A stretch of 64,000 nucleotides of DNA. Origin: Craspedostauros australis (taxonomy: Eukaryota). Of this stretch, positions 27,601-62,186 are shown one piece after another. Made by a program: the position numbers and the translations under genes. Location of the stretch: assembly GCA_030167865.1 (NCBI GenBank), contig JALAGF010003204.1, forward strand, positions 1 through 64,000, given 5' to 3'. The notes beneath the pieces are model-generated. The model was not told the origin of the DNA, ran no database searches, and saw only the letters and a program-made list of their open reading frames with translations. Every line of letters begins with the position of its first letter. Position 1 is the stretch's first letter.

Positions 27601-27934
27601 TGCTGAGCGGCTGATCGTCCATGATGCCCGCAATGGTGGACTCGCCAATGAGACTGTCACCTGATCCACGCTGGCGATCCTTCATCATCGATCGGAAGTA
27701 TGCGGCTTCCGGGTTGTCGCTCCACAGCAGGACGCTGTCGATGCCACCGTTGGTCGAATTGCCACTTGAGTGGTACGTGCTGTCATCGGAGGGTTGATGT
27801 AGTTGTTGCCGCGGTTGCTGCTGAGGTTGGCGGAAGTTGTTGTTGGTCGCGTCAGTCTTGCTTCTGTTGTCGCGGAGCTTCGTCACGCTTCTGTCCAAGG
27901 TGCTGCGAGCTTTGTGGGGTGCGTTCGTGGTCAT
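24647..27934 (-). CDS. Type II single-pass LRR receptor-like protein C, intronless, with SKICH-like C-terminal domain
   Basis: Long ORF; TM ISLIVCMACLAIGIVSAIAALAVI; SPQYEAMEWL, ECAWNGVTC, about 7 LRRs, DCREVDCPCCTVCC cap, DDWIGIYP. Confidence 0.9.
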   Translation of the reverse strand: MTTNAPHKARSTLDRSVTKLRDNRSKTDATNNNFRQPQQQPRQQLHQPSDDSTYHSSGNSTNGGIDSVLLWSDNPEAAYFRSMMKDRQRGSGDSLIGESTIAGIMDDQPLSTLNGSAPMQRSARLGADVDNINAHANHGDIESGPVPTMIGNSDRASGIHSQHPPRSSDSSAASASQLTEQEKQQLHEERVAKSWFRFRARKGAYNPRASRPASSPKRPSSIQKNSTYHNLDLNTSNVPGFAVSAAATGAMTTASPKDLELQPDPTRSPSNESAMGDGMVDIELDNCSTIASMPKRRSQSRSFLRSRRVRISLIVCMACLAIGIVSAIAALAVIKTQDASSQDEEAKSETIFEFPPSLGFVESDVPSEAPSAIVTTEAPTVLTAVPTQVPTLEPTPSPTQPPTNVPTQQPTGSPTAKPTTLSSMAPTQSPTAQPTTPVPTANPTASSAPTMAPTINAAALNLRNLILNRLPEAFHPFQNPTSPQYEAMEWLASDSEYFSLASGRRIQRWTMASFMLGFRNTTAVIGGRRIVDDFQLNALNECAWNGVTCNESGQVVEISIRDTGLEGTVPIELSLIESLEILAMPGNKLYGNIPTQLAKVPGLREIQLTKNELGGPIPTEFGDLDTLTMLGVGRNDLTGEIPSELGNMMQLRTLDLASNSLTGEVPSELANVTSLRHVILDFNGLSGPVPDLSAMDSLRSVYLGGNSFTGSVSSLCDATFLNKLTADCREVDCPCCTVCCFEGSGCADAAQSWPPTFTPEVLETNSTEALPSVMPSVMPSAAPSLATINATDAARDDERANETASPTQLGVTDTPTATPSVESTASSTSGPTALPTSMLSEQPTSQPSPGPTSGPSALPTSGATALLTSKPSPGPTSGSSAMPTSRATALLTSRPSPRPTSGPSAMPTSRATALLTSRPSPAPTSAPTDLPTDQPTAKLEVTESPSAVPSTLPTEQTIAVAQVLAAPDAAAFTRPTSQSSRGRCKATITAGSRCYSPGESITVSFENCDALEDDWIGIYPSHTSMTSLGRSGSMPWSWTCGSKMCRGVMQQGHVELDAVDGMRGTFRAFLVRNSFDAPYEGYASSEEFEVNASCM
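25160..25400 (-). repeat. Coding tandem repeat, 72-nt (24-aa) unit, about 3 copies
   Basis: GGCGAAGGTCTCGACGTTAGTAACGCCGTCGCTCTAGAAGTAGGCATCGCGGAAG recurs at 25173 and 25245; protein unit PSPxPTSGxSAxPTSxATALLTS[KR]. Confidence 0.85.
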
Positions 27935-29399
27935 CTTGTCTGCGCTGTTGCTGTGGATGGAGGAGGATGCCAATAGTTCGACGGAGTATCTTGGTCTTGT
28001 TGCTTGCGAGTCGGAGTGTTGTTCTTGATTGCAGGATTTGGACAATAGACTCGAGGTTCCGTTCTGGTCCTTACGAATGCCTGACGGTTTTGTTCTTGTT
28101 TCGTGTTGCTTCGTAAGTGTAGGAGTAGGTGAGTATGGTATGACACGGTACGATGCGGTGTGTTGTGACGTATTGGTTGGTGTGGATGAGTGCTCGTATG
28201 ATGCTTGCTGGGATTGGGATTTCAGTTGAGCGACTTTATGGGATGGTTGGTCTCTGTGCTTGGGTTGGGACTTTGTGATGTGCGATGTGTGATGGATGAT
28301 GTGAGTCTGTCTTCTGCTTCCGCAACAGCTCGATTCAAGAGTGGATTGCTTGGTGGGTTGAGGTTGAGGTTGTTATGTCCTGATCAGATGGCAAGTTGGT
28401 GGGTCGGCGAGATGATTTGGTTGGTTGGTTGGGTGGTTGGTTGGCTGATGGATCGAGGCATGGGGAAGCCACATGGTATGCAAGTCGTGGAATGCCATGT
28501 TGGTTGTTCTCCCCCATGGTCCATCGCACACACAAACCATTGATGTGGTTTTGGGTCTTGTTGCTGTTGTCGAGAATTGTCAATGTTGTCGTTGGTCATA
28601 TTCTCGTTGGAACTGATGTCTTGGCAGTTGATGTCGGTATTTGTCGTTGGTCTTTCAGTTGTTGCCGTGACAGTTGGTGTCGTTGGTTTTGTTGTTGTCG
28701 TTGTTGTTGTTGCTGCTGTTGCTGCCACGCCGTTGGGTATCGTCACTGTTGTCCTTTTCCGTGGGGCCCGTCAGCGAGTTGCAGAACCGTTCGGAGCATC
28801 GTTTGCGGACTTGCCGAGAACATTGGCGGCGTGTTTTTCTCTCCACGTTCCGCATGTTGCGCTTATTGCGCGTATTGCGCGTGTTGTGTGTGTTGCATTT
28901 GGTCGTTTTTGTGAAGCATCCCACAAACGGCGCCCTTGTGCCGACAAAGATAGAATGCACACGCATTTTACTTAACAAATGAGACACTCATACGACACTT
29001 GACACTGTGAGTGGAACAACGGATACCACACAATAGCAACAGCCAAACTGTAAAATGGGACTCAACAATTAAGGAGGTAACTCGTGATTGATGAGGGAGT
29101 TGGTTGATGTGACAAGTAGAACGTTATTTGACGTTATCCCACAACGATCATTTTCTCAGCTGCCTCCACAACTCACATTTTTGCCAATCTCGTTCCACGT
29201 TTCTCTCTTGTCTCTCTTGGTGGCTGCGGACGCGGACATGTGTCTTGTTTCTTCCACGAGAGAGTTGCCCCTGTGTTTGCACGTCATTGGATGTGGAGTA
29301 ACGTGGAGCAACATGGAGCAACAGTCTCAATGGGCATCAACAGTCTTCGCTGGTAGAATCACGATAACACTGTCGCAACATCAAACAAGATACGAGTAA

Positions 29400-31590: not shown

Positions 31591-34103
31591 TTAGGGGTTG
31601 CCTGACCAGACGCTTAGATTGGCTTCCGAAGGAGTGTTGGTGACGGCCACTCGGATGGAGGTCGGTGGTTGCGATGGGCTGCTGCTTGGTTGCATGGTAC
31701 AGCCATCACAGCATTCACACAGGACCTCGGCGCAATCCACCCTTGCTGTGCGAAGTATCCTGTTCGGATCGTTGCAAATCTGGTCTGGCATGGAGCCAGT
31801 CAGTTTGTTCCTGGCAAGGGAAATGGCGTTGAGTCTCGGCAAGGCACCCACCTGTGAGGGGATGATGCCTTCGAGCTCATTGCCTCCCAGGTTGAGAGAT
31901 TGGAGGCGTGCCAGATTTCCAATTTCGGAGGGAATTTCGCCCGTCAGTTCGTTATCCTCAAAGCCCAAGCTATCCAATTTTTGCAAACGACCCACCTCAG
32001 TCGGGATTGGACCTACAAGGTCGCACCGTCCCAAACCAATGGTGAGGAGCTGGGTGAGGTGTCCAATCTCCGTGGGGATGGACCCCGCAAGTGATGTGCG
32101 AACGAGGCGGAGTATTCTGAGACCCGTGAGCTGTCCCAGCTCGGTTGGGATCTCACCATGAATGCCCGCGTTTCCGTTGAGGTACAGGACGGAGAGCGAG
32201 CTGGACAGGAGGCCCAATTCAAGCGGCAGCGTCCCGGCCATGTCGTTGTCTCTGAGGTCCAGCTCCCTGACTTCGCCCTGCCCGTTGCATATTTTCTCGC
32301 GTGAGTACCAGCTGCATTCGTCGGTGTAATCCATCCAACCATCTGATTCAAGCCAATCGTTTCCACCCAAGCTGTAGAAGAAAGATCCGAGAACCCAACG
32401 CTGAACGGCCTTTTGCGGAGTGTAGGTGGGGTACGATGGATCCCGTGCCAACCAGACAGCAGCCTTGTACTGCGGCGAGAGCTCATCGGCCAAGGTACTC
32501 GTAGCATTGGCTGATGCAGGAAATTGCAAGAGAAGGAAGGCGATGACCTCCTCGATCGGAGCTGGTTGCGTTGGAACTGCTGATGCCGCTGATGGTCGCA
32601 ACGATGGTCTGGTGCTCGGCAAAGAAGTGGGCAAGCTGGTTGGTACGATAGTTGGCCCGTGGGTTGGTGCCTTTGTTGGCGGTTGGGTGGGCGAAGAAGT
32701 GGTCGGAGTTTCCTGTGCCACCGGCTTCTTGTCTTCCACGGTTGGACCCTGGGTTGGTTGTGCCGACGAAATGACTGCCGCGGGAGACGAAGACGACGAC
32801 GAAGTCGGAGATGCCACGCTGCCGGATGGGGTTGATGTCGGAACTCCTGTCGGGGCGTTGGTGGTGGCATCGCCGACATCAGATCCTTCATCCGTGGGAT
32901 CTTCACTCTGAAAGACTGGAGCGAGAGACGGTTGAGCAACCGGTGCCGTGGTTGGGAAGGCTTGGACTGGATCGTCACGGCCGGGAAATCCCTCAAATTC
33001 GTCGGAACCGGCTTTGGCACTTGCCTCGCTGTCATCCGATTGCAGCACCTGGACAACCCCGATGGACGCAATGACGATGAAAATACAGAAAAGGCAGAGG
33101 GATGCCACAAGTGCCCGTCGCACGACAACGTTGCGAAGAGAGTCTCTCAGGAATCCTTTTGGTTTTTCCGCCTCGAACATTCCCTCCTTCGTCGAAAGCG
33201 TGTTGTTGTCAGTATCCGCCCGATCTCTGACCGGAGGCGTGTGCGGCGCGATGTTTGGGTAGACGTACTCCACCGGTGACACGTCCTGATGCTGCGGCGT
33301 CATGACGTGCTGCTGCGGCATGCCAAGACGCGAGTTCGTGTCAGCGTAGTATCGCCCCGGTGTGTATCCGCTCAGCGTGCTCATCTGCTGATCCTCGGGC
33401 ATGTCGGAATCATAGTTTGGGTACACCTCGTATCCATCCTGCACGCTGTGCAAACTCTCGGTTGGTGGTGGATCTGTGTGTAGTCGTATGCGTGCACGCA
33501 ACATAATCGATTGGTACGAATTTGATGCATAGTACGATTAGGACGAGTATTCCGTGACATTGAATCCGAGGCAGAATTGGATGGCATTTCGTCAATTCCA
33601 TGATGAATGACGAATGATGATGCACAACATGGGATGGCACGACCATGGAAAGCGTTTGCCAATGCCAGGGTAGAAGCCAAACGTGGGTAGCCAAAAGGAG
33701 TAGATTGGCATGCATAAAGTTGAATTTGGCGCAATGAAGGAACATTGAACAAGAGCGGATGTTGTGAGACTTGGAGGCCTGCGCATGGGCATGTGTTGAT
33801 GTGGAACATACGAATGTATTTGTAATGCAATGACATGCAAGCCCATGCCATTCACAGCAATGCACAGCAATGCACAGCAATGACCGATATCCGAGAGAAG
33901 CACCAAATGCTGACCAAAGTGTGCAAGCACTTACATGCCGTGAGGTCCCTCATGAGGCTGTCACCAGCCAGACTATCATCAGCCCCTTCGTAGGTGCCGT
34001 ACTGTTCCTTCCGCCGCTCCATGACAATCTGCTGGAGGTACGCATCCTCTGGCTCATCGCTCCAGAGGACCTTGTCCGTGTGCTCCGTGACGATCGATTC
34101 CAT
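31591..34103 (-). CDS. Type II single-pass LRR receptor-like protein D; exons 34103-33935 and 33473-31591
   Basis: Phase-1 GT-AG intron joins MRDLTA-YPPPTES; TM ALVASLCLFCIFIVIASIGVV; SPQYKAAVWL, DECSWY, about 7 LRRs, DCAEVLCECCDGC cap. Confidence 0.85.
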
Positions 34104-35585
34104 CCTTGCAATGGAAAATGGTGTCTCCGTCTGCTGCTTGTGTCCTGGTGCTGGCGTTGTTGGAGCTGCTCTTCTTGTGGGATTTGCAACAGCCTCGAGG
34201 CAATGCCGTCTGTGACCTCTTGATGAGTGGTGCCTTCAGAACTTCACCAGAAACTTTCTCACTCCGCTGTACTACGACTATACTCTGCGGCAGTTGCTCG
34301 TTCTTGATCGCTGTGTTCTCTTCGCTGATGGCTCGTGTGCCTCTTGCGCCTTGTGTTGGTATGGTTGAGGCCGTCAATTGTCTCTCAATCCAACTGGATC
34401 TCTCTCTCTCTCTCTTGCATCGACTTCCTTGATCGTGTGCTGTCCAGTGCTGTCCGTGCTTCTCTTGCAACCGATGTGTTTGGCTCCCAGACTCAATTTG
34501 TGTGGGGTTCGATTTCAAATGTCGACAAAAACGAGAGCGGTTCAGGCCGTGGTTGTTCGTTGCTGTCGCCAATGTTGGTGTCGGTGCAAGAACGCCACCA
34601 CTGTCAAAAATCTGTTCAACGATTCTCAAATCCTTTCCGGCTTCCTGTTCGTCTCCTTGTTCCTAAATGATGCCGACAAACCAAAGATGTGAGTTGCTTG
34701 TGGCGTTATGTAAAGTGGTGGTTGCACCATGTGAGACCTGGACAATATTACCATGGATCAAATTTTGACGTTAACATCGAGAATTTTAAATGGGCGACTG
34801 CATCCAATGATCACAAGAACAAAAGGGACAACACCGTGTGTGACATCACAGAACCTCACAAAATCGAGAGTGTCAAACAAAGAGTGGCGCCAAAGGTCCA
34901 GCCAAGCAGGGCATAGCAGAGCGTCCACGGAGGGCACCATTCCCTCTCTCTCTCTCTCTCTGCAGAGAAACAGAATGGTGCTATCGACAGGACCACGCTG
35001 ATCTTCACAAGTAGAGCGGCGTCATCGAATAGTACGATAACGAGCACGATTACACTATGAAGCCTCCACTCGTAGTGCAATCTACTTTACGATCGTTGTT
35101 GAGGCCAACGCCAGCATCTGATTGATCCGTCCTACTTGATTCGAAGCCTCGCGACGATGTTCTTCTCATCTCCCGAATGGAGCGTGCCTACGTATGTGGA
35201 AGAACCAGAAGTGTGTTTCGCTGCGTGTCTGGTCGTTGAATCTTTGCCGAGCGTTATCGTACTTTGCTCGGAAGATGATGGTGGCTTCCGCCTCATCCGT
35301 CGGTGATCTTTCGGCCCTTGTAACGGAAACGCCAAATCATGTGAACGTTGCACAGGCCTCTCTCTTTGTCGTCGTGAGAAACTGCGCAGGGAGAAACAAG
35401 AAAGATCTTGTCAACACAGGTGACATCAACAAAGCCCAAAAACTACACAGCAGAACATCACCAATGGCGACACCTTGTCAAACCAGCAAAGATACCTCAC
35501 CTCTCTGTCGCATCACATCCATGTCTCGTGCTACTACAAACCAGCAAAGAGCAGAGTACCCCTCTTCCTCTTTGGTACCAATGCA

Positions 35586-36863
35586 ATGAACTTCCAGGAG
35601 GTTCTTCGATTTACTTGGTTGCTTTGCCTTTGCCCGCATGCCGAAAGTCTGCGACCCATCGTGCCTGTACCATCCCAACACTCATGCTCGTACTACATCG
35701 CTCCTGATCTGCGCCATCAGTATTCTGATCATCCGACTTCCTCCCGCACAAAATCACCACGACGCTTTCGACAATCTGCAGGATTAGCAACGCATCATCC
35801 ACCACAGACGGGCCATCGCACAGCATCTATCACGAGAACGATGGCTGCGATTGGATCGTGGGCGGAGCTGACGCCACCAACGTTTGATGCGGGCGTGAAG
35901 GATGCCAAATCTGTGCCCAAGCAGATGTACAAGAACGAAGACTTCAAGGCGGCCGTGATGGACGCCTGGGCGGCGGAGCTGTCGGCCACCGATGACGTGC
36001 AACAAGTGGAAACCGCATCCATCGTGTACTCCTCCTCCGAATCTCCAACAAACTCAAGTGGAGGCTGTGGTGATCCCATCACAACACCATTGTATGGCCA
36101 TCTTGTACGGCGATGCAAACCATCAAGCAGCGATACCGACGATGGAAGCGGTGCCAAATCTGTACAATCGTCGTCGACGAATCCAAACATCGGCGCGTTG
36201 TTCTTTCACACAGCAGCAGGACCGCACGACGCATTCCTCCTGTGGAAGGCGGCCTCGTTGCTGCAGCACGTCGATTGCACGATCCTCATTTGCGATCTGT
36301 TTTCCGATGAATCCGGATGGGGATGGGATCCTGATCGCTCCCGGTACCAAAAGGTCCGCGAACATCTCTTCGCTGGCGCGAATGACGACGCACCGCACGT
36401 GCTGCAGCAGCGCGTTGCGGCGGCATGCGATACCATCCAGAACGGAAGGAAGGACATGAAGATCGCGGCTCTGGGATGGTGCTTTGGTGGGCACCCGATC
36501 CTGCAGCTGGGGAAAATGAACCTGCCCAACCTGCACGCCATGGTGACATTCCATGGTGTCTTCGATACGCGTCTTGCGACCATGAAGCAGTCCGACGTAT
36601 CGCAGGAATCAAAAACATCGCAAGCCGCAGTTCTGCTGTGCCATGGAGAGCAGGACCCGTTCGTTGCATTGGCCGATGTGGAGCTGTCGGCCAAGTCTCT
36701 GGAATCGCACGGACACCGCGTTCGCGTGCTGGAACTGAAAGACGCGATGCATGGATACACCAATCCAGCGCAAGATCTGAATCCCAATCCATCCTTCGCG
36801 TATCAAGCCGAAGGGGCAAATCGGGCATGGGCTGATGCCGTCGAGGTCTTGAAATCGATCTAG
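35586..36863 (+). CDS. Dienelactone hydrolase family protein with N-terminal targeting peptide
   Basis: Nucleophile elbow GWCFGG, VTFHG, LLCHGEQDPFV, HGYTNP (Cys-Asp-His triad). Confidence 0.85.
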   Translation: MNFQEVLRFTWLLCLCPHAESLRPIVPVPSQHSCSYYIAPDLRHQYSDHPTSSRTKSPRRFRQSAGLATHHPPQTGHRTASITRTMAAIGSWAELTPPTFDAGVKDAKSVPKQMYKNEDFKAAVMDAWAAELSATDDVQQVETASIVYSSSESPTNSSGGCGDPITTPLYGHLVRRCKPSSSDTDDGSGAKSVQSSSTNPNIGALFFHTAAGPHDAFLLWKAASLLQHVDCTILICDLFSDESGWGWDPDRSRYQKVREHLFAGANDDAPHVLQQRVAAACDTIQNGRKDMKIAALGWCFGGHPILQLGKMNLPNLHAMVTFHGVFDTRLATMKQSDVSQESKTSQAAVLLCHGEQDPFVALADVELSAKSLESHGHRVRVLELKDAMHGYTNPAQDLNPNPSFAYQAEGANRAWADAVEVLKSI

Positions 36864-37535: not shown

Positions 37536-38204
37536 CGCCTGTATCTTTGTGGTGGGAAGGTGACTGCTTTGTTGGGAGGCTCGCGGATGGGTGTGCACAA
37601 CCAATTAGGGTACCGTGACAACACTGATGAAGGCGGGTTTGATGCCAATGACTCCAATGACTCCAATGACGCCAACGACGCAGGGATGATGAGGATACTC
37701 TTGCTCTTATCGGTGCTTGTAGAATGGGGTGACAGGCATTCACGACAACTCGCTCCACTATCGCCTGTTGCGGTTGTTGCAACTGTTGCGATTCCATCTG
37801 ATGCGTTGTTACGTCCACGTTCGCTTTTGTCTCTCTCTTGTTTCTTTCGATTTACAGTATTAGTCGACTGTGCTTTTATTTTGGCGCGAAACTGATAATC
37901 GACAACTTTGACTGCTCTCAACTGAAGAAAACAAACAGAATATCATTCACGAGTCAGTTCGGCTGATTCGTGACTGTCGTTTCTACTCAGTCTGTCCACC
38001 ACACGGAGAGATGTGAAACAGAGCGAATCTGGGCTTCTCTGCCACCACCAACACAAAACATGATGTCAACCCAACATTCGGAGGCCGTCCTGGAGTGGGT
38101 GCCCATCAAAGATCGGCCACAGGTTCATGGGTATCACAATCCTTGTTGCGTGGTAGTACGATCTAATCAATCTGAACAAACGGACCCCCATCAAAAGCAA
38201 CACA

Positions 38205-39518
38205 ATGGCGACGGAAGAAGACGCTACCGAAGACCAGGCAGAGCCAAAGCCTGCCCGTGAGGCTGCACAGAAGCCCCGTCGAATCATCCGCAGACGGAGA
38301 CGCAACAAGGGACCGGAGATCGACATGGCGCTGCTGGAGAAGACCGTGCAAGCGTCCAGCCTGCCCAAGGCCTACAGCTTCGAGCTGCCCAAGACGGTCC
38401 AGCGCATCCAGTCCATAGGCGCTGCGCATGTGGCCTTGCAGATGCCAGAAGGTCTCCTCATGTACGCAACCGTGCTGTCCGACGTGATCAAACGGCTCTG
38501 TCCGACGCTCACGCAGGTTTCCATCCTGGGCGATGTCACGTACGGAGCCTGCTGCGTCGATGATCTCGGAGCGAAGGCCCTGGGAGCCCAGCTGCTGGTG
38601 CACTACGGCCACTCTTGCCTGGTGCCCATCCAGCACACGGCCATTCCATGTCTCTACGTCTTTGTGGAGATCACCATCGATGTGCCGCATCTCGTGGACT
38701 GCCTCGACATGACCCTGTGTGGTGCGCCCGTCTCCACATCAGCTTCGACGTCAGCAGATGTGGATGTGCCTACTAATTCAGACACTAGTGTGGAGACGAA
38801 GCCTCTCGTCTACCTCCTGGGCACCATCCAGTTCCGCCACGCTCTGTTGGAAGCTGATAAGCTCCTGCAAGCCAAGGGATACGAAACCAAGATCCCGCAG
38901 GCCAAGCCACTGTCTCCAGGAGAAGTTCTGGGCTGCACATCGCCGGTTCTTACCAGCGACAGGGATTCCAACGCGGTCGTGTGCTTCGTCGCGGATGGAC
39001 GTTTCCACCTGGAATCCACGCTCATCTCCAATCCGCACATCCCTGTGTTCTACAGGTACGATCCGTACAGCAAGGCGCTGACGGAGGAGGCCTACAAGCA
39101 TGAGGAGATGAAGGACATTCGTCACAACGCCATCCAACGCGCTCGATCCGCCAAGACCTTCGGCATCTTGCTCGGGACTTTGGGACGTCAGGGAAACCCT
39201 GCGATCGTGCAAAGGATCAAGGAGACGCTGCGCGCGCAAGGCAAGCGCCACTTCCTCATGCTCGTCTCGGAGATCACGCCGCACAAGCTGGCTCTGTTCC
39301 ACAACATCGACGCATGGGTGCAGGTGGCATGTCCCAGACTTTCCGTCGATTGGGGACATCATCTGTGCGAAAAGCCCGTCCTCAACCCATACGAGTTGAT
39401 GGTGTGCCTCGAGAAGTCGGAATGGAGGAAGGTGTATCCCATGGACTACTACGCGCAGGCTGGCGGCGAATGGGCCAACTACCATGAATCCAACAAGAAT
39501 CGTGTCATCGAGATATAG
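38205..39518 (+). CDS. DPH1: Diphthamide biosynthesis protein 1
   Basis: VALQMPEGL, GDVTYGACCVDD, HYGHSCLVP, GEVLGCTSP, DGRFHLES, LGTLGRQG, QVACPRLSVDWG, YPMDYY. Confidence 0.95.
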   Translation: MATEEDATEDQAEPKPAREAAQKPRRIIRRRRRNKGPEIDMALLEKTVQASSLPKAYSFELPKTVQRIQSIGAAHVALQMPEGLLMYATVLSDVIKRLCPTLTQVSILGDVTYGACCVDDLGAKALGAQLLVHYGHSCLVPIQHTAIPCLYVFVEITIDVPHLVDCLDMTLCGAPVSTSASTSADVDVPTNSDTSVETKPLVYLLGTIQFRHALLEADKLLQAKGYETKIPQAKPLSPGEVLGCTSPVLTSDRDSNAVVCFVADGRFHLESTLISNPHIPVFYRYDPYSKALTEEAYKHEEMKDIRHNAIQRARSAKTFGILLGTLGRQGNPAIVQRIKETLRAQGKRHFLMLVSEITPHKLALFHNIDAWVQVACPRLSVDWGHHLCEKPVLNPYELMVCLEKSEWRKVYPMDYYAQAGGEWANYHESNKNRVIEI

Positions 39519-49741: not shown

Positions 49742-51711
49742 TTACGGCCGATTCTGTCCATTTTGGGGTGGCGCTCCTGGATCCCCTCCGGCAGACGCCT
49801 GATCCTGTACTGTGTTGAACGAGCTGCAGCTTGGGCACTGGGTTCCCAGGAAGTGCCAATTCTGCCGTACGCTCCTGGCTTCGCAGTCGTTGCAAATGAT
49901 ATCGACCGATCGTTGCAAATCCGCCGGCATGGGATGCTCGGCAATATCCCGAGCGCGAGCCTCCCAAGCCGCCGCCATCGACTGCTGTGATACCACTGTC
50001 TTCTTGCAAATGGGGCAGCGATAATCGAAACCAGCCAGCTTCCGGAAGCAGTGAGCATGGATGGCATGCCCGCACGGCAGATCCTGCGGGGATTGTCTTG
50101 ACGAGAACATATCTTCGCGGCAAACTGGGCAGTTGTTTTTGTACTTGTCCTTGAAGCATTGGTGCGTGTTGAAGACGCTGACGGAGATGCACATGCAGCA
50201 TTCGTTACAGTGTCTGAATGATTCTCTTCCGCCGACTCTGCAGAATCCACATTGGTGACAGTGGAACGGCTTCCGTGACTGTGTGCGCGCGTTTGCAAAC
50301 AATTGTGTACGGTGTGGCAAAATTGGTTTGTGTGCGTGTTTGGGTGTATGCATCGTGCATGGACAGCGTATCCATAGTGTGCGGATGGTTGGGTTCGTTT
50401 GGCGTGGTGTGGAATTGGTCCCAGCCAGAATGGAAATAGGCATGGAGGAGTGAGTTGATGTGCTGTTGTGAGTATTATGGTACAGACCAACGATGATGTG
50501 GGCGTGGATGTGGATCTGGATGCGGTTCACTTGGACACCATCAAGAAGATCGAAAGGAGAAAGAGCAGACCCATCCCAAAGACCTTTGCCATTCCAACAC
50601 AAGAACGCAAAGTCGCCCCAGCAAAAATGCAAACCTACCTGCGCCATCCATAGGTTACAGATATGGCAGTGATATTCGCCAAACACCGTTTGGCAACTGA
50701 TACAATGATTCCTGTGTCGTTCCGAACGTTGTTGTTGTTGTTGTCGTTGTGCGGTACAATGATGGTTGATTGATTCAATGATTGAGTGATTGTTTTCGTG
50801 GAGCAGATATCGATCGTCCAGGCCAATACGGAGACACGAGAAAGTGAAATGGGACGTGAGAAGCTGGCGTTAGCGTTAGTGTTTGTATTTGAAGAAGCTT
50901 TGATGTCAACCATTGAACAGGCCTCTCCAGGAGCACACAGCAGCGCAGAACCAGCGCCATGGGATTCTTCATGGATACCAACGCATGTAATCGTTTGGGT
51001 GGATGAATGATGGCGAAGCGAATATAGTATCTTGCTGCAAGAGCAAACATTCTCATAATCGCAGTTACCGATTTGCTTCGCCATTTCAATCTCGATCAAG
51101 TAGAGACCCCCAGACAGAGGCCATACTCCCCGTCTCACGACAACGATCGTATCAACAGAGACACACTCCATACACAACCACACGCATACAACCACACGCA
51201 TACAATCACACGCGTACATGCGCGACACTTACGACGCTGCCTGCCTGGTATTGCAGAGCTTGCAAACGACTTCCCGCACATGGAATCGGTTCATGGGCGG
51301 GTGCCCTGGCGGGCTCATCTCGTCATGGCAGATGCGGCAGCCGAAAACCCTGTTGCAGCACGGCGCCACGATGTTGCAATTGCGCTCGTAGTGACCGCAG
51401 ACGTTTCTGCTCTCGGGGGTTGGCACCACGGGTGCCTGCTGGGGCGTGACCTCCGTGCGTCCACCAGACATGAGGTTTTGGATCCTCATTCGCTTCTCGG
51501 CATCGCTGAGCGACGTGTCTCTCTGAATGGCCTGAATGGCTCTGCGACGTGCAATCGCCGCATCGTCCTCCACCCGCTCCGGTGCTGGTGCTGGCGCGTC
51601 TTCGGCCATCTCCTCTTCATCCTCCTCGTCCTCCTCGTCGTCTTCATTGATGTCATCGTCGCTGTCACCCATATCAGCGTCGATCATGACGTAGTCATCA
51701 CCGGATGCCAT
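49742..51711 (-). CDS. RCHY1: RING finger and CHY zinc finger protein (Pirh2-like E3 ligase); exons 51711-51233, 50711-50639, 50278-49742
   Basis: CGHYERNC...CCNRVFGCRICHDE, FGEYHCHICNLW, FHCHQCGFCRVG, RING CPVCREDMF...LPCGHAIH...CPICKK, zinc ribbon ICNDC...CPSCSSFNT. Confidence 0.92.
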
Positions 51712-52799: not shown

Positions 52800-52850
52800 C
52801 TACTCCCATTCGATTGTGGCAGGCGGCTTGGAGCTGATGTCGTAACAGAG

Positions 52851-52884
<34 letters not shown>

Positions 52885-55245
52885 CTGCTCATGGTGCCCA
52901 TCACATCGTAGGGGAGGTGGTAAAAGTCCGCGGTCATGTAGTCTGTGGTCTCCACGCAACGGACGCTGGCGACCCATTCGTAGGTGCGTCCATCTCCCAT
53001 GACGCCGACCGATTTGACCGGGAGCAAAACGACGAAGGCCTGACCGATCTTGCGGTAGTGACCGCTCTTCAACAGCTCCTCGATCACGATGTCATCGGCT
53101 TCCTGGAGGATCTTGACCCGGTCGCGTGTCACCTCTCCCAGGATGCGGATGGCGAGGCCTGGACCAGGGAATGGATGGCGCCACACGCTGGTTTCATCGA
53201 TTCCCAGCGCCATTCCCAGCTCTCTCACCTCATCCTTGAACAGTTCGCGAAGTGGCTCGATCAGCTTGAGCTTCATGGTATCAGGCAGACCACCGACGTT
53301 GTGGTGCGTCTTGATCGTCGCAGATGGGCCTTTGTAGGAGATTGACTCGATAACGTCCGGGTACAGGGTTCCCTGGAGAAGGTACTCGCAATTGCCATTC
53401 AGATCGTTCTCGATCTTGGTCGCCTCCTCTTGGAACACCTCAATGAAGGTGTTGCCGATGATCTTTCTCTTCTGTTCAGGATCGGTGACGCCGGCCAGCT
53501 TGTCGAGGAACCGGTCGCAGGCATCGACACATCTGAGGTTGACGCCGCAGTCCTCGCGCATGCGCTTGAGGACCTTCTTCGCTTCATCCTTGCGAAGGCA
53601 TCCGTTGTCCACCAGCACCGCGTGAAAACGATCGCCGATGGCGCGGGTCATCAGCACGGCAGCGACAGTTGAATCGACGCCACCGCTGACAGCGCCGATA
53701 ACATGGTGCTCCCCTACCTTGGCCCGAACCGATTCGATGAACTCATTGGCGTAGTCCGTCATCACCCAGTCCTGCTTCGCGCCCGCGATCTTGATGCAGA
53801 AGTTGCTCAGGATCGTCTTTCCCAGCGGCGAGTGCGTCACTTCCGGATGGAACTGCAATCCCCACATCTTCCTCTCCGAATTCTCGATCGTGACGAACTC
53901 GGCGTTTGGTGTCGCGGCTTTGGGCACATTCCAAACAGAAGACAAGAGCAGGCGTGGCGGTGCAATTCATCGTGAGAGATTGCCTCTGTGGTTTTCCTTT
54001 CAGACGGCTGTTCGTATGCGTATGCGCATGCGTATGCACATGCGCATGGGTTTGCGCTTCCATGTGCGTGTATGCTTGCATGTGCGCCTTGGTTTGTGGT
54101 TGCAGGCGTGGATCCGATATTGTCATGACGGATACTGAAAATGCGTACAACGGCCACGGCAACTCGCTGCCCTTGGGAATTGTCTTCCAATGCAAATGCA
54201 ATTCCAAATGATCGTCGCCCAACGACACAGCACTGCTCCCCAAGTTCATTCACATTCTTCGAGCTTGCGCAATGAATGCGGGAATTTGCAATGTGCTTTG
54301 CACGCATTTCAGAAACCCTTGCCAACATTCACATCACGACATCCATGGAGAGTAGAGCATTTTGCCATTCACAGTGCTGTTCGTGGAAATTGCACAGGAC
54401 TCACCGACTGCCTTGAAGCCGTCTGGGGACTTGGTCAACTTGTCACCATGCGACATCCACATTTGGAATTCGTTGGGCATGCCATCGAAGAGCCTGGATT
54501 CGCAGCCTTCTACTCTCTTGACTATCGCCTTTCCGTACTCGTGCTTCAAACCCGGCTCGACGGCTCCGCCGAATGTGTGCGCCAGTTCCTGCATACCGTA
54601 GCAGATTCCCAGCACGGGGACGTCACGTTCCTCGATCAGCTTCCAAACTTCAGGCTTGACGTGCGGGGCGCCTTCGTCGTAGACGCTGCTGGGACCGCCG
54701 CTCAGGATCACTGCGATGAGCTTGCGCTTGCCAAGCTCCTCGGCGGAGACCAGGCAGGAGTACAGTTCGCAGAACACATTGATCTCGCGGACGCGACGTG
54801 CGATCAAATGAGAATACTGGGACCCGAAATCCAGGATCGCCACCTGAGGGCTGCAGGTTTGTTGTTGGCGGTTGTTGGCGATTATTGTGGCATCCGTGGT
54901 GTTCCGGATGGCGAATGAAGCAATGTGGATAAAGTGAAGAGTTCGGTGCGAGGTGCAGTATCGGGGGTTAAGATTGATCATTGCCTGTGTCTGTTGTGCC
55001 GCGATGCGCTCTGTATCCTTGTGACGTGTGACAATCCAATCGCAGGGAGAAATAGAGAAAGAGCGGCAGAGCCAACGAGGTGCTCCCAAACAACAACACC
55101 GGCAGCGGTGGCAGCATGCATGTTGGCAACGCAACCTAAGTCAAGTGAAGTGTCCCGACAGGCTTCCACGATGCCAAGAGCAATGATTGATGGCCACTGC
55201 GGAATCTTACCGATCGTAGGCATCGAGTTGAGCTGATTGGGCCAT
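52800..55245 (-). CDS. guaA: GMP synthase (glutamine-hydrolysing); exons 55245-55211, 54850-54405, 53917-52800
   Basis: [87 protein letters not shown]. Confidence 0.97.
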
Positions 55246-55879: not shown

Positions 55880-58828
55880 TTAGGACGCCCTGCTTTGTTC
55901 CGGGCGGGCGTCCTCGGTTCTGCGGAATGTCAACAAGTACTCGGGATAAGCCTGAGCGTCGTGATACACCACAAAGACCGATGGGTTGATGACGTCGTCA
56001 ACGGTCGAATCGTAGAGCTCGAAGCTGTTGTAGGGCTTGGGATCTGGGGTCCTCTGGCCGTGATTTCCTCTGCACCAATCCCCCACAGCCACACGGCACA
56101 TGAACATATGCCGCGTGCCGTCGTCATCCGGGACGGCGTATGCCGGGTCCATGGAATACGATGCATCGCGGGCGAAATACACTCCCCCTCCGAATGCCAC
56201 GGCGTTGCGGCCAGAAAAGCTTCTGTTGAAGCCTTGCTGGTTGATCTTTTGGATGTTGTCTGCCTCTGTACCATGAAACAGCCACTTGCGTTCCACCTGT
56301 CCTTTCAGGTTGTTGGTATAGGTGCCTGGGTGCTCCTTTTGTGTGGTCTGCATAGTCTGCAACTTCACGGTGTACGATTGCCAAAGGGACATGTTCTGCA
56401 CACGTCTGATAGACGTGATCTCGACAGCATCTCTGTCTCTGGGGTGCAGCGTGCTTCGGAAGTAATCCTTCGCACATTGGTATTCTTGCGACTCTTCGCG
56501 CAATGGATATAGTCCATCCATGACGCGCGAACTTCCATTGCTCGCTGTGTCCCAGTTTGATGGTGCCCCGAGAGACGGCATTTCCGTTCCCATATTCTTC
56601 GCCAGAGATTTCATCACACCGGCATCCGCGGCTTCGGTTGCGATTTTCGGGAACCATCCTGAAGTTCTGCGCAGCTCCATGGCGTCCATAATTGTGGCCT
56701 TGATCTTGTCATCGATCTGCGATGCCTGGCGGTTGTCGATGTTTCCTGCACTCTCCGTGAGAGGATCGAAGAGGACGTTGCCGTACGCCCAACTGTCGTC
56801 GTTTGGATGCTCTCGAACTACCTTGATAAGCTGGCCTACTCTGAGCGGGAGCAAGCCCAGATGGTCGCCGTTGATTTCATCGAAGCTGGGCGGCAAAGGC
56901 GGGAGTAAGTGACCTTGCTTGGGATCGGGTTGCAACTGGTACTCCTCGCGCTGGATGCGCCGGGCGTTCCCAGATTTCAAATTGACTTGCTTCAGTTCTT
57001 GGAGGTTCAGCTCGAAGCCCGCCCCGGTGTGAGCGTTCTGCTTCTTCTTGACGTTGCTGCTGAGCTCGATTTCGAGTATGGAGTCTTCAGGGTTCTTTTG
57101 GTAGTCTTGCCACCCTATCTCGATCAGCGTTGAGATTTCGCGGTTGTACGCAACAAACTGCGTCTCCGCCAGCCGCTCGGATTCTGGATACTGATTGATG
57201 AAGCGTTGGTCCTCCTCCCAGTACCACCTCACAACCGTGGTTGGTGCATCGTTCATCGCCTGCTGGGCCTCGTTGTACTCCGCAGACGTCCGGTGCGGGA
57301 CATTTTGCTTCACCTCCACGACCCCGGTCAATTGCACGTTGATTTGCTCCGCCATTTCCTGCAATTCCGCCGCGCTTTTTTGGAGTGCACGATACTTTGC
57401 CCGGTTCTTCCTGCACATGATGAATGTAGCAATGACGAAGACCAGTGCCACGGCGGACGTGATGAACACGTAGTTCGGGATGCTGTCCTTGTCCTTCGGG
57501 AGAGGGGTCGAATCCTCGGGGATGATCCCACATGCAGTGTCCTCTCCCATGGCCGTTGGCACGACGCATAGGCCTTCCTTGTCGAGTTGGAAGACTGGCT
57601 CGGTTCCGTCGGATGGCACCGTCACCTCGCCGACTGACTTCCATGCGTACGAGTCAGACGCAGCTCTCTGCAAGTTGACGATGGAGAACCTTGGGTCCTT
57701 TCTGTCGCCCGTTTCGGTGAAAGCGACGGGTCCACTGACTCCGTCGAACTCGAGCTTCTGAAGCTCCTGGACCACACTTGCACCATCTCTGCGCTTGTCG
57801 GCAGGGACACGACCGATGGCCTTCGCAGCGGAGACGATGGCATCCACCATCATCTCGGCAGGGTACTCGGGAAGATCGTCGTATGTGTCCAGCCCTCGCT
57901 GAGCGAGGTATTGGTTGAACCGTCGCAGGAAGTCCGCGTACTCCTCGTTCCTGTTGCGGAGCGGAACCACGCCAAGGAGTCCGGGGTACGGTCGTTCTGG
58001 CGAGAATTCGGGGCTGTACCGTTCAGCCCATGCTTCGGGTGCCAGCCACACCGCATCTTCTCGCGCCAACCCCTGGGCGTACACCTGGTCCAAGATCTGG
58101 CTTGCGTCTTGGGCGTGCGCCACGAGAAGGATGATCTTCGAGTTCTGCTCAGAGTCAAGCCCTGGCAAGCTCTCCATGGCCTGGCGCACAGCGTCGGGGT
58201 CCACCATCGTGTTTCTCGCGTTGGCAGAGTCTCTCACGAAGGTGATGGTCGGCGCCTGGTAGGTCGTGCCACCCTGGGACTCCCACAAGTCGCGAAAGTC
58301 CTTGGTGAGATCTCTCGCGAATTGCTTGTCGGTCAGGAGGATGTGGACGTTCGTCCATCCCATTGCCTTGAGCACGCCCGCGAGGCCTCCGACTTGACCG
58401 AATTCGTTGTCGGGCGGGACCATCCGTGAGAAGAGCGGGTAGTCGTCGGCCCTGTCCGAGAAGATGGTGGCGGTAGACGAGATCGCCACTTGGGCGATGT
58501 TCTCCAAGGATGTGACCGTGGCAACGCTATTGGAAGCGCCGCTGCAGCGACAGCCTATCACGGCGTGGATCGCCTGGTCGAATTCGGAGCGGAGCTCCCA
58601 GTAGGCCCTGGACGCCTGCGCTGCGTCGCAGCCAGCATCTCCGATCTTACTGGTGATGGTGAATTGATCATTCTCGAAGATGTCGTCGTGCCATCCATCG
58701 GTGGGGTCGTTGAGGAAGGCGACGACGGCATTGAAGAGATCGTAGCCGTATGGGGTGTTGGCGACTCCGTACAATCCAGCCATGTTGACGACGGAATCGG
58801 TGCCGTTGACGCTCGGATTGGTTGCCAT
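55880..58828 (-). CDS. Single-pass membrane protein: ANF-receptor/Venus-flytrap ectodomain, TM, coiled coil, WWE, SH3, PARP catalytic domain
   Basis: AVIGCRCSGAS, QVAISSTATIFSDRADDYPLFSRMVPPD, MGWTNVHIL, FDGVSGPVAFTETGDR; TM YVFITSAVALVFVIATFIMC; VRWYWEED...KQVNLKSGNARRIQR; LPLRVGQLIKV...WAYG...GWFP; WLFHGT, GFNRSF, FGGGVYFARDASYS, MFMCRVAVG, YDSTVD, FVVYHDAQAYPEYLL. Confidence 0.88.
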   Translation of the reverse strand: MATNPSVNGTDSVVNMAGLYGVANTPYGYDLFNAVVAFLNDPTDGWHDDIFENDQFTITSKIGDAGCDAAQASRAYWELRSEFDQAIHAVIGCRCSGASNSVATVTSLENIAQVAISSTATIFSDRADDYPLFSRMVPPDNEFGQVGGLAGVLKAMGWTNVHILLTDKQFARDLTKDFRDLWESQGGTTYQAPTITFVRDSANARNTMVDPDAVRQAMESLPGLDSEQNSKIILLVAHAQDASQILDQVYAQGLAREDAVWLAPEAWAERYSPEFSPERPYPGLLGVVPLRNRNEEYADFLRRFNQYLAQRGLDTYDDLPEYPAEMMVDAIVSAAKAIGRVPADKRRDGASVVQELQKLEFDGVSGPVAFTETGDRKDPRFSIVNLQRAASDSYAWKSVGEVTVPSDGTEPVFQLDKEGLCVVPTAMGEDTACGIIPEDSTPLPKDKDSIPNYVFITSAVALVFVIATFIMCRKNRAKYRALQKSAAELQEMAEQINVQLTGVVEVKQNVPHRTSAEYNEAQQAMNDAPTTVVRWYWEEDQRFINQYPESERLAETQFVAYNREISTLIEIGWQDYQKNPEDSILEIELSSNVKKKQNAHTGAGFELNLQELKQVNLKSGNARRIQREEYQLQPDPKQGHLLPPLPPSFDEINGDHLGLLPLRVGQLIKVVREHPNDDSWAYGNVLFDPLTESAGNIDNRQASQIDDKIKATIMDAMELRRTSGWFPKIATEAADAGVMKSLAKNMGTEMPSLGAPSNWDTASNGSSRVMDGLYPLREESQEYQCAKDYFRSTLHPRDRDAVEITSIRRVQNMSLWQSYTVKLQTMQTTQKEHPGTYTNNLKGQVERKWLFHGTEADNIQKINQQGFNRSFSGRNAVAFGGGVYFARDASYSMDPAYAVPDDDGTRHMFMCRVAVGDWCRGNHGQRTPDPKPYNSFELYDSTVDDVINPSVFVVYHDAQAYPEYLLTFRRTEDARPEQSRAS

Positions 58829-60183
58829 CTTTGTGCGGTGTTGCGATTGAAGCGCAGTGTGAATTGTTTTGCTTTGCTTTGCTTTGTTTGTTGCACTTCG
58901 TTTGCTGTTTTGCATAGATTATGAGCAAATGGAGATATGTATTGCTGCAGCGAAGATGCTAAATCGAAGATGAAGCGTGAGAAAGCGAGAGGGGACGGTC
59001 AAAGCAACTGCAGCCATCGCGTAGACACGGTGAGATGCCCAACTTCTTCGCAGACTTGTCTCACCATGCGAACGACCTGTGGTAGTCGTACCTCACGATG
59101 AAGAAACCTTTTCTTTTTGGTCGCTCCCCCATGGACATAGAGTTCTCATGTCTTGGGCACCACACATGCGTATCTTCCGCGCCAAGGCAAGCGCGAAGGA
59201 CGGTAGTTGGTGTACGTAGGCATGGTACAAGGTATGCGACCAAGAAAGCGCCGTCGGGTCTTGGGTGCTGACATCGCCTCACTGCGGGCACTGCTCCAGC
59301 AGATGACGCGCATGGCCTCGAGCCGTTCGCAAGTCCAATAATTGCGCAACGCCAAGAAGAACAGATGGCGATGAGACATGCGCAGGCGCCACTGAGCCTC
59401 GAGTTTCGAACGAAAGGCTCAATCAAGCTTCTGTCCATTTCCGTCTCAGAATCGGTCTCTCTGTCGCTCTGTCGTTCTTCTCTTCAATCTGTTCGTCGGA
59501 GGGAGGCTTCCCATCTTTCATGTCTGGCTTCCATCCGAACTGTCAAGATACCAGCGGCGTCAAGACATCCATCGAGGGTGCGATCATAGCGGCGAGTCCT
59601 GATTCCGCTCGCCACTTGGCAGAAAAGTGTGTGCTCTGGGTTCCTGTCGCGGTTTGGAGAGGCGAAGAAATGAAGAGAACAGCGTCTCCCGTTTGCGTGT
59701 TGTGACCTGTAGACACGGACAACGTATGCACGTAACAAATGAATAATTATAACATTATTGTATTCGTACTGGTCCATCACTCCTGTGCGAATTTGAACTT
59801 AGATTCTATAAACATGGATAATAAGTAATTTACCTCCGTATCCCACAAGAGCAAAAAGCAAAATGACGGTTTTGCGTTCGTAACGGACCAGACCCATTCA
59901 TTTTGTCTAGAAAGACCTCGAGGAACGGATGTGACCTGTCGCGAGTATGTACGCAATGAAGCAAACATCATGCAGCTGCCATACCCAGGTCGGACTGCCC
60001 CGTGAAGACTCCACATGTTGTCGGAAGCGATTCTATGATGTATATTTATGGTCGAAGTACTGTTTGTAACACATCCTCTGCTTGAGGGAGTTAGTTCTCT
60101 GCTGTGGACAACAAATGTGTGCATTGTACTGAGCAAAGAAGAATGGACAAGCGTTGGCTTGTACGAGTAGATAATGCACGGTT

Positions 60184-62186
60184 CTAAAGCAACAAAGCGA
60201 TGCCCGCTTGCAGAAGAAACGCCACGGATGCGCATGTCGACGCCAACGATGAAAGGCCAAACCACGTCGACGGAGGTGCCAGGATTGCTGTTGCGGAGGA
60301 AGTGGGCGTTGGCGCCGATGTCCCTGAGCCACCAATGCTTCGATCTGTCTGTTCTGTGTTACTTGGCGCATCGGTCGGGGGGTTTGAAGGTTTGTCCGAT
60401 GGGGCTGACGATGCCAGCGACGTTGGAGAACTACTGGGGGCTGAAGTTGGCTGGTGGGAAGGAGTTGGTGATGGCAGTCTGCTTGGAATCGACGTTGGGA
60501 CTGCCGTCGGCATTACTGACGGTGCTCGTGACGGCATCGTCGTTGGGGTTGATGAGGGAGCGCCGCTTGGGGTCGATGACGGCGAATCGCTGGGCGACGA
60601 CGACACAAAGGGTGATTCGAGGTTGCAGAATTCGATCTCTCCAATAAACGCGCTTCTGGAACTCGAAAAGAACGGTTGCGCATCGTCGGTGGCCTCCTCG
60701 CTCGAAGCACCGTAAAACACCGTGAAGTAGCAGCCGGGGCACTCCACGTTCTCATCCGGATGTTCGATGGCACCATTGGCGAATATGTCGGTGTCGTCGG
60801 ATGCCGTGTCAATTCTCAAAGCGATCACATCGTTCCTTTGTGACACCTCCAATGGCGAATCGAACGGGACGGAGTCTGTGAATTCCATCTCGCCTCTCCC
60901 GCGGACGCTTCCTGAAGCCACCTGCATCCAGCTGCCCGGTTCTTCCCACGTGCTGTTCCTCCACCAGATCGTGTATGGTTGGATGGAGGTATCCGGCAGG
61001 ACGAGCTTGAGGCCATTGATCTGAATGGCCTGGTGGACCTGGATGTCAAATCGAAACGATTGCACGTCGATCCCGCAGTAGCTCGTCGCAAACTCCGTGT
61101 GCCTCCAGAAACCACACGACAAGGTTGGCGAAGCAGATGATGATGGCGCCGCCGTTGGCGGTTCTGACGACTGGGAGGGCATCGCAGTCGGTGCGACTGA
61201 ATCCGTTGGAGCAAAGGTGACAGGCACACGCGTCCCGGTGTGGCAGAAGGTGAGAGCGCCCATGAAAGCGTCGAAGCTGCCTCTGTAGAGGGGCGCGGCA
61301 TTGGCCGTTGCCTGCGTGCTGGACATTCCGTACATCACCGTGAATGCTGCGGATCCACCCTCCACGAATGCGGCTGGATGCACGATGGGAGCACGACGAT
61401 CGAAGAAGCTGTTGGTGGATGTCGGTGTGTCGACGCGGAAGGCAATGATTCCGCTGCCGAAGGAGACTTCAAGCGGTTCATCGAATGGGATGCGATCCGT
61501 GTAAGCCGAGATTCCTTTCGCTACTACCATTCCCGATGCCAGCCTTGTCCAATTGCCGACCTCGTTCCACGTGCTGTCCCTCCACCAGATATTGTACGGC
61601 TGTTCGGATGTGCCCTGAAGAATGAGTTGCATCCCATCGAAGGAGATATCGTCATGAATCTCGACATCAAAACGAATGGAAGCAATATCGTCATCAAAGT
61701 ACAGTTCCGCGAACTGCGCATGCCTCCATTCGCCGCAACGCACAGTAGGTGCGGCGGAGCCTGTAGGTTCCATGGTTGGTGCTGTGCTGTTATCCTGCAA
61801 TGGTATTGAACGACGGTACATGATGCGCAACGGCATCGAGTGGAGCAGGGCGGAGTTGAACAGAAAGAGAGCGTGAGAAGACTTGCGGAAGTTGGGAAGA
61901 CTCCTCCTCCTCCTCCTCGCGCTCGTGTGTCATTGGTTGGAAGGTGAACTTTCGGGCTCATGAAGAATGGCAGGGATTCCTCCGCTCAACAATTCTGTCG
62001 CGGCGCTCGCACATGTTCACGATCATTCAACCACCATCATCGTCGTCATCGTCATCGTCGTCATCATCATGGTTGACGCTCTCCCTGGTTCGATGAACTC
62101 ACCTGTGACGATTCTGTGCTTGCAAGGAGACACAAGCACAACTGCGCGAATCCAACAGCCGAGTATCTCATCTTCGTGATCTTCAT
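60184..62186 (-). CDS. Secreted, probably GPI-anchored or C-terminally anchored protein with two tandem copies of an unrecognised ~170-aa domain; exons 62186-62103, 61794-60184
   Basis: Exon 1 encodes signal peptide MKITKMRYSAVGFAQLCLCLLASTESSQ, spliced in phase 0; duplicated CGxWRHxxFA...RFD...QPYxIWWRxSTWxExGxW...PFDxPLEVS...AFxGxxxFC; PS/PT stalk; hydrophobic C-terminus. Confidence 0.8.

Follow-up and report, generated by a model that had tools for sequence, protein, structure and literature searches.

Can a protein be a receptor on one side of the membrane and an ADP-ribosyltransferase on the other? The question is raised by an open reading frame (ORF) on the minus strand of contig JALAGF010003204.1 of Craspedostauros australis, in a stretch of 64,000 nucleotides (positions 1 to 64,000) that is referred to here as the window. 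The ORF encodes a protein of 1011 residues, P0001, in which a Venus-flytrap domain of the type found in receptors is followed by one membrane helix and, on the other side of it, by regions resembling WWE and SH3 domains and by a PARP catalytic domain. A receptor enzyme whose output is ADP-ribosyl transfer is in our judgment the best explanation for this gene, with a probability of roughly 60%, because of its architecture, the conservation of its catalytic residues, and the exchange of sensors throughout the family to which it belongs. On this explanation P0001 would span the membrane once, and the diatom that encodes it is of the pennate type. Its elements, from the N-terminus onward, are as follows.

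55880..58915, minus strand: ORF of 1011 codons with a TAA stop (55880-55882), a single open frame encoding P0001.
57665..58666, minus strand: ANF_receptor / type I periplasmic-binding (Venus-flytrap) domain, residues 84-417 (Pfam E 9.4e-37).
57413..57469, minus strand: single membrane helix, residues 483-501 (Kyte-Doolittle mean 2.64).
57332..57412, minus strand: basic stop-transfer stretch (RKNRAKYR) and juxtamembrane helix, residues 502-528 (sequence and AlphaFold2).
56948..57226, minus strand: probable WWE domain, residues 564-656 (below the Pfam cut-off here, matched in relatives).
56891..56905, minus strand: conserved LPxLP motif (LPPLP, residues 671-675), directly before the SH3-like domain (alignment of relatives).
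56621..56863, minus strand: likely SH3-like beta barrel into which a helical stretch of about 30 residues is inserted; residues ~685-765 (models, Foldseek).
55922..56491, minus strand: PARP catalytic domain, residues 809-998 (Pfam, sequence and fold matches).
56273-56275, 56177-56179 and 55976-55978, minus strand: catalytic triad H881, Y913 and V980, respectively (alignments with PARP15 and within the family).

A sequence-only reading of the same DNA had proposed that one uninterrupted ORF joins a flytrap to a PARP, and both points hold. The minus-strand frame is open throughout the interval given above; the frame assigned by that reading was correct, but the start that it gave, 58828, is the second ATG (M30), and the ORF begins at 58915. 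P0002, a transcript-derived diatom protein (MMETSP1352) containing a signal peptide, an ANF domain, one membrane helix, WWE and PARP, is colinear with the ORF (45% identity over 97% of the query), and other full-length members derived from transcripts are available (P0005, P0017 and P0205). The continuous frame and the colinearity with transcript-derived relatives rule out two genes or a chimera of the assembly. There is no second copy of the PARP or of the flytrap within the 64-kb window, and eight opposite-strand and flanking ORFs that were tested gave no Pfam match at E<=0.01. The overall architecture and the positions of the elements are also as that reading described them; the WWE and SH3 calls are the weaker ones.

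The enzymatic end of the protein is the most clearly defined. PARP (PF00644) scores 96.8 bits against a cut-off of 26.7 (E 1.6e-27), and the domain was found in all 49 aligned relatives when these were scanned singly. Among solved structures searched by sequence PARP15 is the closest (E 4e-43), followed by PARP14, PARP10 and PARP12 (PARP12 at E 6e-26), with ZAP/PARP13 among the weaker matches; in the fold search PARP15 occupies the first 24 rows, with TM values of 0.90-0.94, 37-40% identity and E 3e-21. These matches leave the assignment of a PARP catalytic domain secure. PARP15, PARP14 and PARP10 are active enzymes; inactive PARP-like domains serving as scaffolds are reported for PARP13 and for plant RCD1. 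All 49 relatives keep H881 and Y913, and 44 of 49 keep Y926, while the third position of the triad, mapped through the sequence alignment with PARP15, is Ile in 35, Val in 6, Leu in 4, Met in 2 and Thr in 1, with one gap, and is never Glu. In P0001 it is V980 that replaces the catalytic Glu of the PARPs that form poly-ADP-ribose (PARP1/2, tankyrase type), and the resulting H-Y-V triad points to an enzyme of the mono-ADP-ribosyltransferase type. H-Y-L/I triads and the label of mono-ADP-ribosyltransferase are what we take to characterize human PARP10, PARP14 and PARP15, which are the best sequence and fold matches, keep the His and Tyr of the NAD+ site, and likewise have a hydrophobic residue in place of the Glu. 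Unlike P0001, however, the three human proteins are soluble, have macro, RRM or KH domains (as does the relative P0057), and lack both a membrane helix and an ectodomain.

The N-terminal half matches ANF_receptor (PF01094) with 127.3 bits against a cut-off of 25.4, over profile positions 22-352 of 353, and therefore over both lobes; Peripla_BP_6 matches the same region in Pfam (E 1.4e-13). The closest solved structures by sequence are the ectodomains of mGluR6/7/8 (E 5e-15 and weaker), in agreement with the earlier assignment of a type I binding-protein fold. In an ungapped alignment with mGluR7, residues S125, T148 and D169 face the Ser, Thr and Asp of the GSS..., AST... and VPPD motifs, and F199 faces a Tyr. 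Over 29 members of the family with an ANF-type ectodomain, position 125 is Ser in 25, position 148 is Thr in 23, and position 199 is aromatic in all 29. The Ser and Thr of mGluR7 are presumably the residues that hold the backbone or carboxylate of the amino-acid ligand. Class C GPCRs (group III mGluRs, CaSR) are thus the closest solved counterparts of the ectodomain, with the Ser and Thr positions of the pocket retained; P0001 differs from them in having one hydrophobic segment, and neither a 7tm family match nor a cysteine-rich domain according to Pfam. A structure prediction of two copies of residues 30-480 as a homodimer scored 0.07 against a mark of 0.32, and was used as evidence neither way. 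The ESM Atlas, restricted to clusters of at least 50 members, contains no cluster with the fused architecture, and only ANP-receptor-3 clusters were recovered (score 0.75), which we treat as a lead only.

Between the two halves, residues 483-501 form a 19-mer that is the sole segment of P0001 with a hydropathy of 1.8 or more, and RKNRAKYR follows it directly on the C-terminal side, exactly as expected from the single helix and basic residues that had been noticed at the outset. A hydrophobic segment followed by basic residues recurs in 29 of 29 ANF-type relatives, and in 32 of 32 family members examined the stretch that separates the ectodomain from the WWE includes a hydrophobic segment. From this arrangement we infer that the flytrap faces outward and the enzyme lies in the cytosol. 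The plan is that of the receptor guanylyl cyclases and the ANP clearance receptor (NPR family), which also combine an ANF-type flytrap, one membrane helix and a cytosolic part (the solved ectodomain of NPR-C is matched with E 3e-6), and the order of a sensor outside and an enzyme inside is shared with the cyclases; in contrast to these, P0001 has no kinase-homology or cyclase domain (Pfam, E<=1), and its predicted output is an ADP-ribosyltransferase.

A search with the cytosolic part against 1.84 billion representative sequences returned 6063 matches at E<=0.001, many of the weaker ones being ordinary PARPs, and 392 at E<=1e-30, which also include other PARPs. When 53 of the best 150 relatives were scanned again with Pfam, an extracellular-type domain preceded the module in 22: ANF or Peripla_BP_6 in 12, Cache in 6, CUB in 2, PBP_like_2 in 1, and LRR with HRM in 1. 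A separate, word-indexed search gave 351 matches among 8000 scored candidates; for the 120 of the 351 that were listed, the ectodomains were counted by hand from a precomputed Pfam column, yielding 34 with ANF/PBP6, 30 with Cache, 11 with CUB and/or NMT1-like, 3 with LRR, 7 with other domains (Bmp, PBP_like_2, EGF, 5'-nucleotidase and others), and 35 without a recognized ectodomain. The same cytosolic module therefore occurs behind ANF/PBP, Cache, CUB, NMT1-like, PBP_like_2, Bmp and LRR domains in diatoms (Seminavis robusta, Fragilaria crotonensis, Cylindrotheca closterium, Nitzschia inconspicua and a Staurosira-type strain are named as sources) and in the pelagophyte Aureococcus anophagefferens; one MMETSP record bears a ciliate label. 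The database names of these relatives are automatic ones, such as 'polymerase 14', 'TCDD-inducible PARP' and 'platelet-activating factor acetyltransferase'.

The distribution of the ectodomain types was followed on a quick maximum-likelihood tree of the cytosolic module (unrooted, 49 rows, 470 columns), in which 23 of the 49 rows carry no label, as they are fragments or have no recognized ectodomain. The types are interspersed: the 26 labelled rows imply 8 changes, where four would be the minimum, and the starred branches require at least five changes for ANF. P0001 itself falls in a well-supported group of 22 rows that includes 8 Cache and 4 ANF members. Such interspersed sensors fit a receptor family with one common output; in receptor families sensors are seen to change repeatedly while the output stays conserved. 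Two of the relatives, P0006 and P0007, represent a different fusion, in which a protein kinase domain and a PARP10/14/15-like catalytic domain share one chain with repeated He_PIG Ig-like domains; P0006 has a hydrophobic N-terminal stretch, and proteins of this type may be receptors combining a kinase with an ADP-ribosyltransferase.

The middle of the cytosolic part is less well defined. A confident AlphaFold2 model of residues 504-1011, calculated with 48 relatives in the alignment (mean pLDDT 88.5, pTM 0.73), begins with a juxtamembrane helix of 24 residues (505-528, cytosolic positions 2-25). The WWE region follows as a domain of mixed alpha/beta structure, then comes a small beta domain interrupted by helices, and the catalytic domain closes the chain. 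A WWE domain had been proposed for the second of these regions, and the match is in the right place: WWE is found at the aligned position in 44 of 49 relatives at E<=0.1, and above the Pfam cut-off in several, although P0001 itself stays under that cut-off. Searched by sequence against solved structures, the linker and WWE/SH3 region (residues 504-808) gave a single match at chance level, and no WWE. The presence of a probable WWE domain upstream of a mono-ADP-ribosyltransferase catalytic domain is shared with the WWE-PARPs (PARP7, PARP11, PARP12), to which P0001 adds the SH3-like domain, the LPxLP motif, the membrane helix and the predicted extracellular sensor. PARP7, PARP11 and PARP12 are soluble, and some have CCCH zinc fingers. 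The description of WWE-PARPs as soluble proteins needs a rider, as membrane-spanning PARPs are reported in the available part of Perina 2014 (PMC4245714).

In the LPxLP motif P675 is conserved in 47 of the 49 aligned relatives, L674 in 28 and P672 in 24. The SH3 domain that had been proposed after it corresponds in the model to strands 696-702, 709-716 and 752-756, with helices in 718-747 inserted between the second and third long strands. For a separate model of residues 664-790 (pLDDT 82.4) the best Foldseek match is the CrkL SH3C domain (E 0.24, probability 0.92, TM 0.56), and an SH3 domain is named in 26 of the 47 Foldseek rows among the matches listed. Pfam finds no SH3 model at E<=1 in P0001; in the 49 relatives at E<=0.1 it finds SH3_9 in 6, SH3_2 in 5 and SH3_1 in 2, and in the relative P0029 SH3_2 reaches 22.1 bits, just over its cut-off of 21.8. 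According to these models, residues ~685-765 are likely, but not established, to be SH3-like.

Several observations weigh against the receptor reading and have to be set beside the architecture, the many sensors in front of one module, the interspersed tree and the invariant His and Tyr that support it. The WWE profile (PF02825) scores 16.6 bits with the whole protein and 18.6 bits with the cytosolic part, against a cut-off of 21.1. Foldseek returned no match at E<=0.001 for the model of residues 664-790, and the SH3 call is therefore not significant on its own. In the binding pocket, the position of the mGluR Asp that we take to hold the amino group of the ligand is occupied by E294 in P0001, and it is variable over the 29 ANF-type members (Ser in 14, Asp in 4, Gln in 3, Glu in 2, Thr in 2, and His, Pro, Ala and Ile once each); an amino-acid ligand is therefore only a guess, and a small carboxylate or amino-acid-like ligand is a reasonable guess and no more. 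Finally, there is no signal peptide within the ORF. The best 10-residue hydropathy of the first 40 residues is -0.33, against 1.67-3.1 in relatives with complete N-termini, and by a crude hydropathy rule 16 of the 29 ANF-type relatives have a hydrophobic N-terminus. Upstream, however, the same frame contains a candidate for the missing piece.

58919..59017, minus strand: same-frame upstream peptide MAAVALTVPSRFLTLHLRFSIFAAAIHISICS, starting with an ATG at 59015-59017 and ended by a TAA at 58919-58921; a candidate signal peptide (tblastn, hydropathy).

This peptide has 32 residues and a hydrophobic core (best 10-residue hydropathy 2.22). In tblastn the N-terminus of P0002 passes through the TAA, and the upstream peptide lines up with the signal peptide of P0002. 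The in-frame TAA cuts the candidate signal peptide from the body of the gene, which also counts against a working receptor: as sequenced, P0001 might not insert with the flytrap outside. A variant code in which TAA would be read as sense was considered and is ruled out, as TAA closes this ORF at the C-terminus common to the family and also closes the ORF of a RING-finger gene in the window, and is thus an ordinary stop here. The 5' end can then be explained in three ways: by a wrong base in the sequence, by a nonsense allele that is real, or by another 5' exon. Reading of the sequence shows no canonical GT donor between the hydrophobic stretch and the TAA; for a spliced signal-peptide exon farther upstream, 520 possible GT-AG combinations were enumerated. 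Since the TAA splits a probable signal peptide from the rest, the copy in the window may be a mis-sequenced, null or mis-targeted allele.

The explanation that ranks next after the receptor reading, although we consider it unlikely, concerns this copy: the one in the window would be a pseudogene, a null allele or a sequencing error, and with its signal peptide removed by the TAA no functional receptor would arise from the locus as sequenced. The position of the stop, between a signal-peptide-like stretch and a conserved body in a region colinear with P0002, speaks for it, as do the normal use of TAA as a stop in this genome and the lack of the GT donor just mentioned. On the other hand, 1011 codons are open and none of the conserved residues, catalytic or structural, has been lost; a long period of decay is therefore hard to reconcile with the sequence. 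Moreover, a single base error or another upstream exon, for which there are the 520 combinations, would give the same picture.

A membrane-anchored enzyme without ligand gating is a rather improbable second alternative. Its ectodomain would serve in nutrient capture, adhesion or sorting, and the tethered PARP would be regulated from inside, for example by the level of NAD+ or by ADP-ribose through the WWE. Coupling across the membrane was not seen in any computation here, and the relatives without a recognized ectodomain, 35 of the 120 listed, would suit such an enzyme; many of them, however, are short fragments from small contigs. A precedent is PARP16, a membrane-anchored mono-ADP-ribosyltransferase without a sensor, as far as the accessible text of Perina 2014 (PMC4245714) describes it. 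Mere anchoring accords poorly, though, with ectodomains that are typical receptor sensors (ANF, Cache, PBP, LRR, HRM), and with their repeated exchange on a conserved cytosolic module.

Doubtful, and less probable again, is a receptor for surveillance of an immune type, whose ectodomains would recognize microbes, viruses or damage signals and whose ADP-ribosyltransferase would be an effector of defense or cell death instead of a metabolic or nutrient signal. Binding domains such as LRR and CUB, exchanged repeatedly in a large and varied family, are compatible with this role, and infection is the context in which PARP10/14/15 and PARP12, the nearest relatives in animals, are reviewed in the available portion of one article (PMC7050484); the commonest ectodomains, however (ANF/PBP, Cache, NMT1-like and the phosphate-binding type), are small-molecule binders. 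Least likely is a pseudo-enzyme whose PARP domain binds NAD+ or ADP-ribose without transfer and serves as a scaffold: PARP13 among the weaker matches and the inactivity of Arabidopsis RCD1, noted in what was accessible of Perina 2014 (PMC4245714), would favor it, but at the NAD+ site the His and both Tyr residues show little or no variation over the 49 relatives, the third triad position is hydrophobic as in active mono-ADP-ribosyltransferases, and the closest solved relatives are PARP15/14/10.

If P0001 is a receptor enzyme, it could work in the following way. The flytrap would close on a small ligand, perhaps a carboxylate such as an amino acid; binding would rearrange the juxtamembrane helix, most likely in a dimer; and the rearrangement would start or stop modification by the mono-ADP-ribosyltransferase, either of itself or of proteins close by. 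The WWE domain may then retain ADP-ribosylated products, while the SH3-like domain may recruit a proline-rich partner, or the neighboring LPxLP motif may hold the SH3-like domain until activation.

The sequence-only reading knew of no characterized receptor class of this kind; full-text searches of the literature, covering main texts, gave no description of a PARP behind a ligand-binding ectodomain. Diatoms sequenced at the time, Phaeodactylum among them, are reported to be without PARPs in the available part of Citarelli 2010 (PMC2964712), and at least two PARPs are given for Thalassiosira oceanica in that of Perina 2014 (PMC4245714); within the same portions of these two papers a receptor-like PARP architecture in diatoms does not appear. 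Membrane helices are described by Perina 2014 (PMC4245714), in the text available, for PARP16, a sponge Clade 3 protein and Rhizaria proteins, none of them with a ligand-binding ectodomain. These membrane-attached PARPs resemble P0001 in being of the mono-ADP-ribosyltransferase type, but according to the same text PARP16 has a C-terminal anchor and no sensor, and in the sponge protein an N-terminal helix directly precedes the PARP domain. Nor is the architecture mentioned in what was accessible of the Seminavis genome and pheromone papers and of a preprint from 2026 about the modularity of PARPs. The family, a large one, seems to be unstudied and to represent a new kind of receptor enzyme.

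Downstream of the ORF lies a split GMP synthase gene, and upstream the gene of a Ser/Pro-rich protein with repeats; nothing ties either of them to ADP-ribosylation. The latter, encoded directly upstream (60184-61836, minus strand), has 550 residues, two internal repeats of about 230 residues (starting near CGEWRH and CGFWRH), a long Ser/Pro/Thr-rich stretch, a hydrophobic C-terminal tail and no Pfam match; it looks like a cell-surface protein. The GMP synthase extends over two minus-strand ORFs (52803-53966 and 54337-55140), one with the GATase N-terminal part and one with the remainder ending in GMP_synt_C, presumably separated by an intron of about 370 bases with a CA/TG-rich simple repeat. 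Two long ORFs of 1241 and 648 residues (24650-28372 and 31594-33537, both minus) contain leucine-rich repeats and no other recognized domain, and may be further receptor-like genes. A 513-residue ORF (7600-9138, minus) matches a PcfJ-like model (E 5e-7; 30.1 bits, where the cut-off is 25), which is odd in diatom DNA, as the PcfJ family is known from bacterial mobile elements. The diphthamide synthesis gene (38157-39515, plus; E 3e-102) encodes a protein most similar to unnamed proteins (up to 74%), the closest named ones being from pennate diatoms at 61-69% (Nitzschia, Cylindrotheca, Seminavis, Amphora, Mayamaea), and on this basis the window is placed in that group. Other ordinary eukaryotic genes in the window encode a lysine methyltransferase (Methyltransf_16; 10212-11441, plus), a SET-domain protein (14147-15703, minus), a dienelactone hydrolase (35424-36860, plus) and a RING/zinc-ribbon protein (49745-50869, minus).

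To our knowledge, receptor enzymes signal through kinases, phosphatases or cyclases. A membrane ADP-ribosyltransferase gated by a ligand would add a new output chemistry to these and would give mono-ADP-ribosylation a defined upstream trigger. Tentatively, at somewhat less than even odds, we suggest that diatoms and pelagophytes have a class of 'receptor ADP-ribosyltransferases', in which interchangeable sensors (flytrap, Cache, CUB, PBP, LRR) gate one module of WWE, SH3-like and mono-ADP-ribosyltransferase domains. The finding is also relevant to the chemical sensing of diatoms, a process described as little understood in the available part of one article (PMC11085791). If the suggestion is true, protein ADP-ribosylation would stand beside phosphorylation and cyclic nucleotides as a primary transmembrane output, in the sensing of marine nutrients, infochemicals or microbes.

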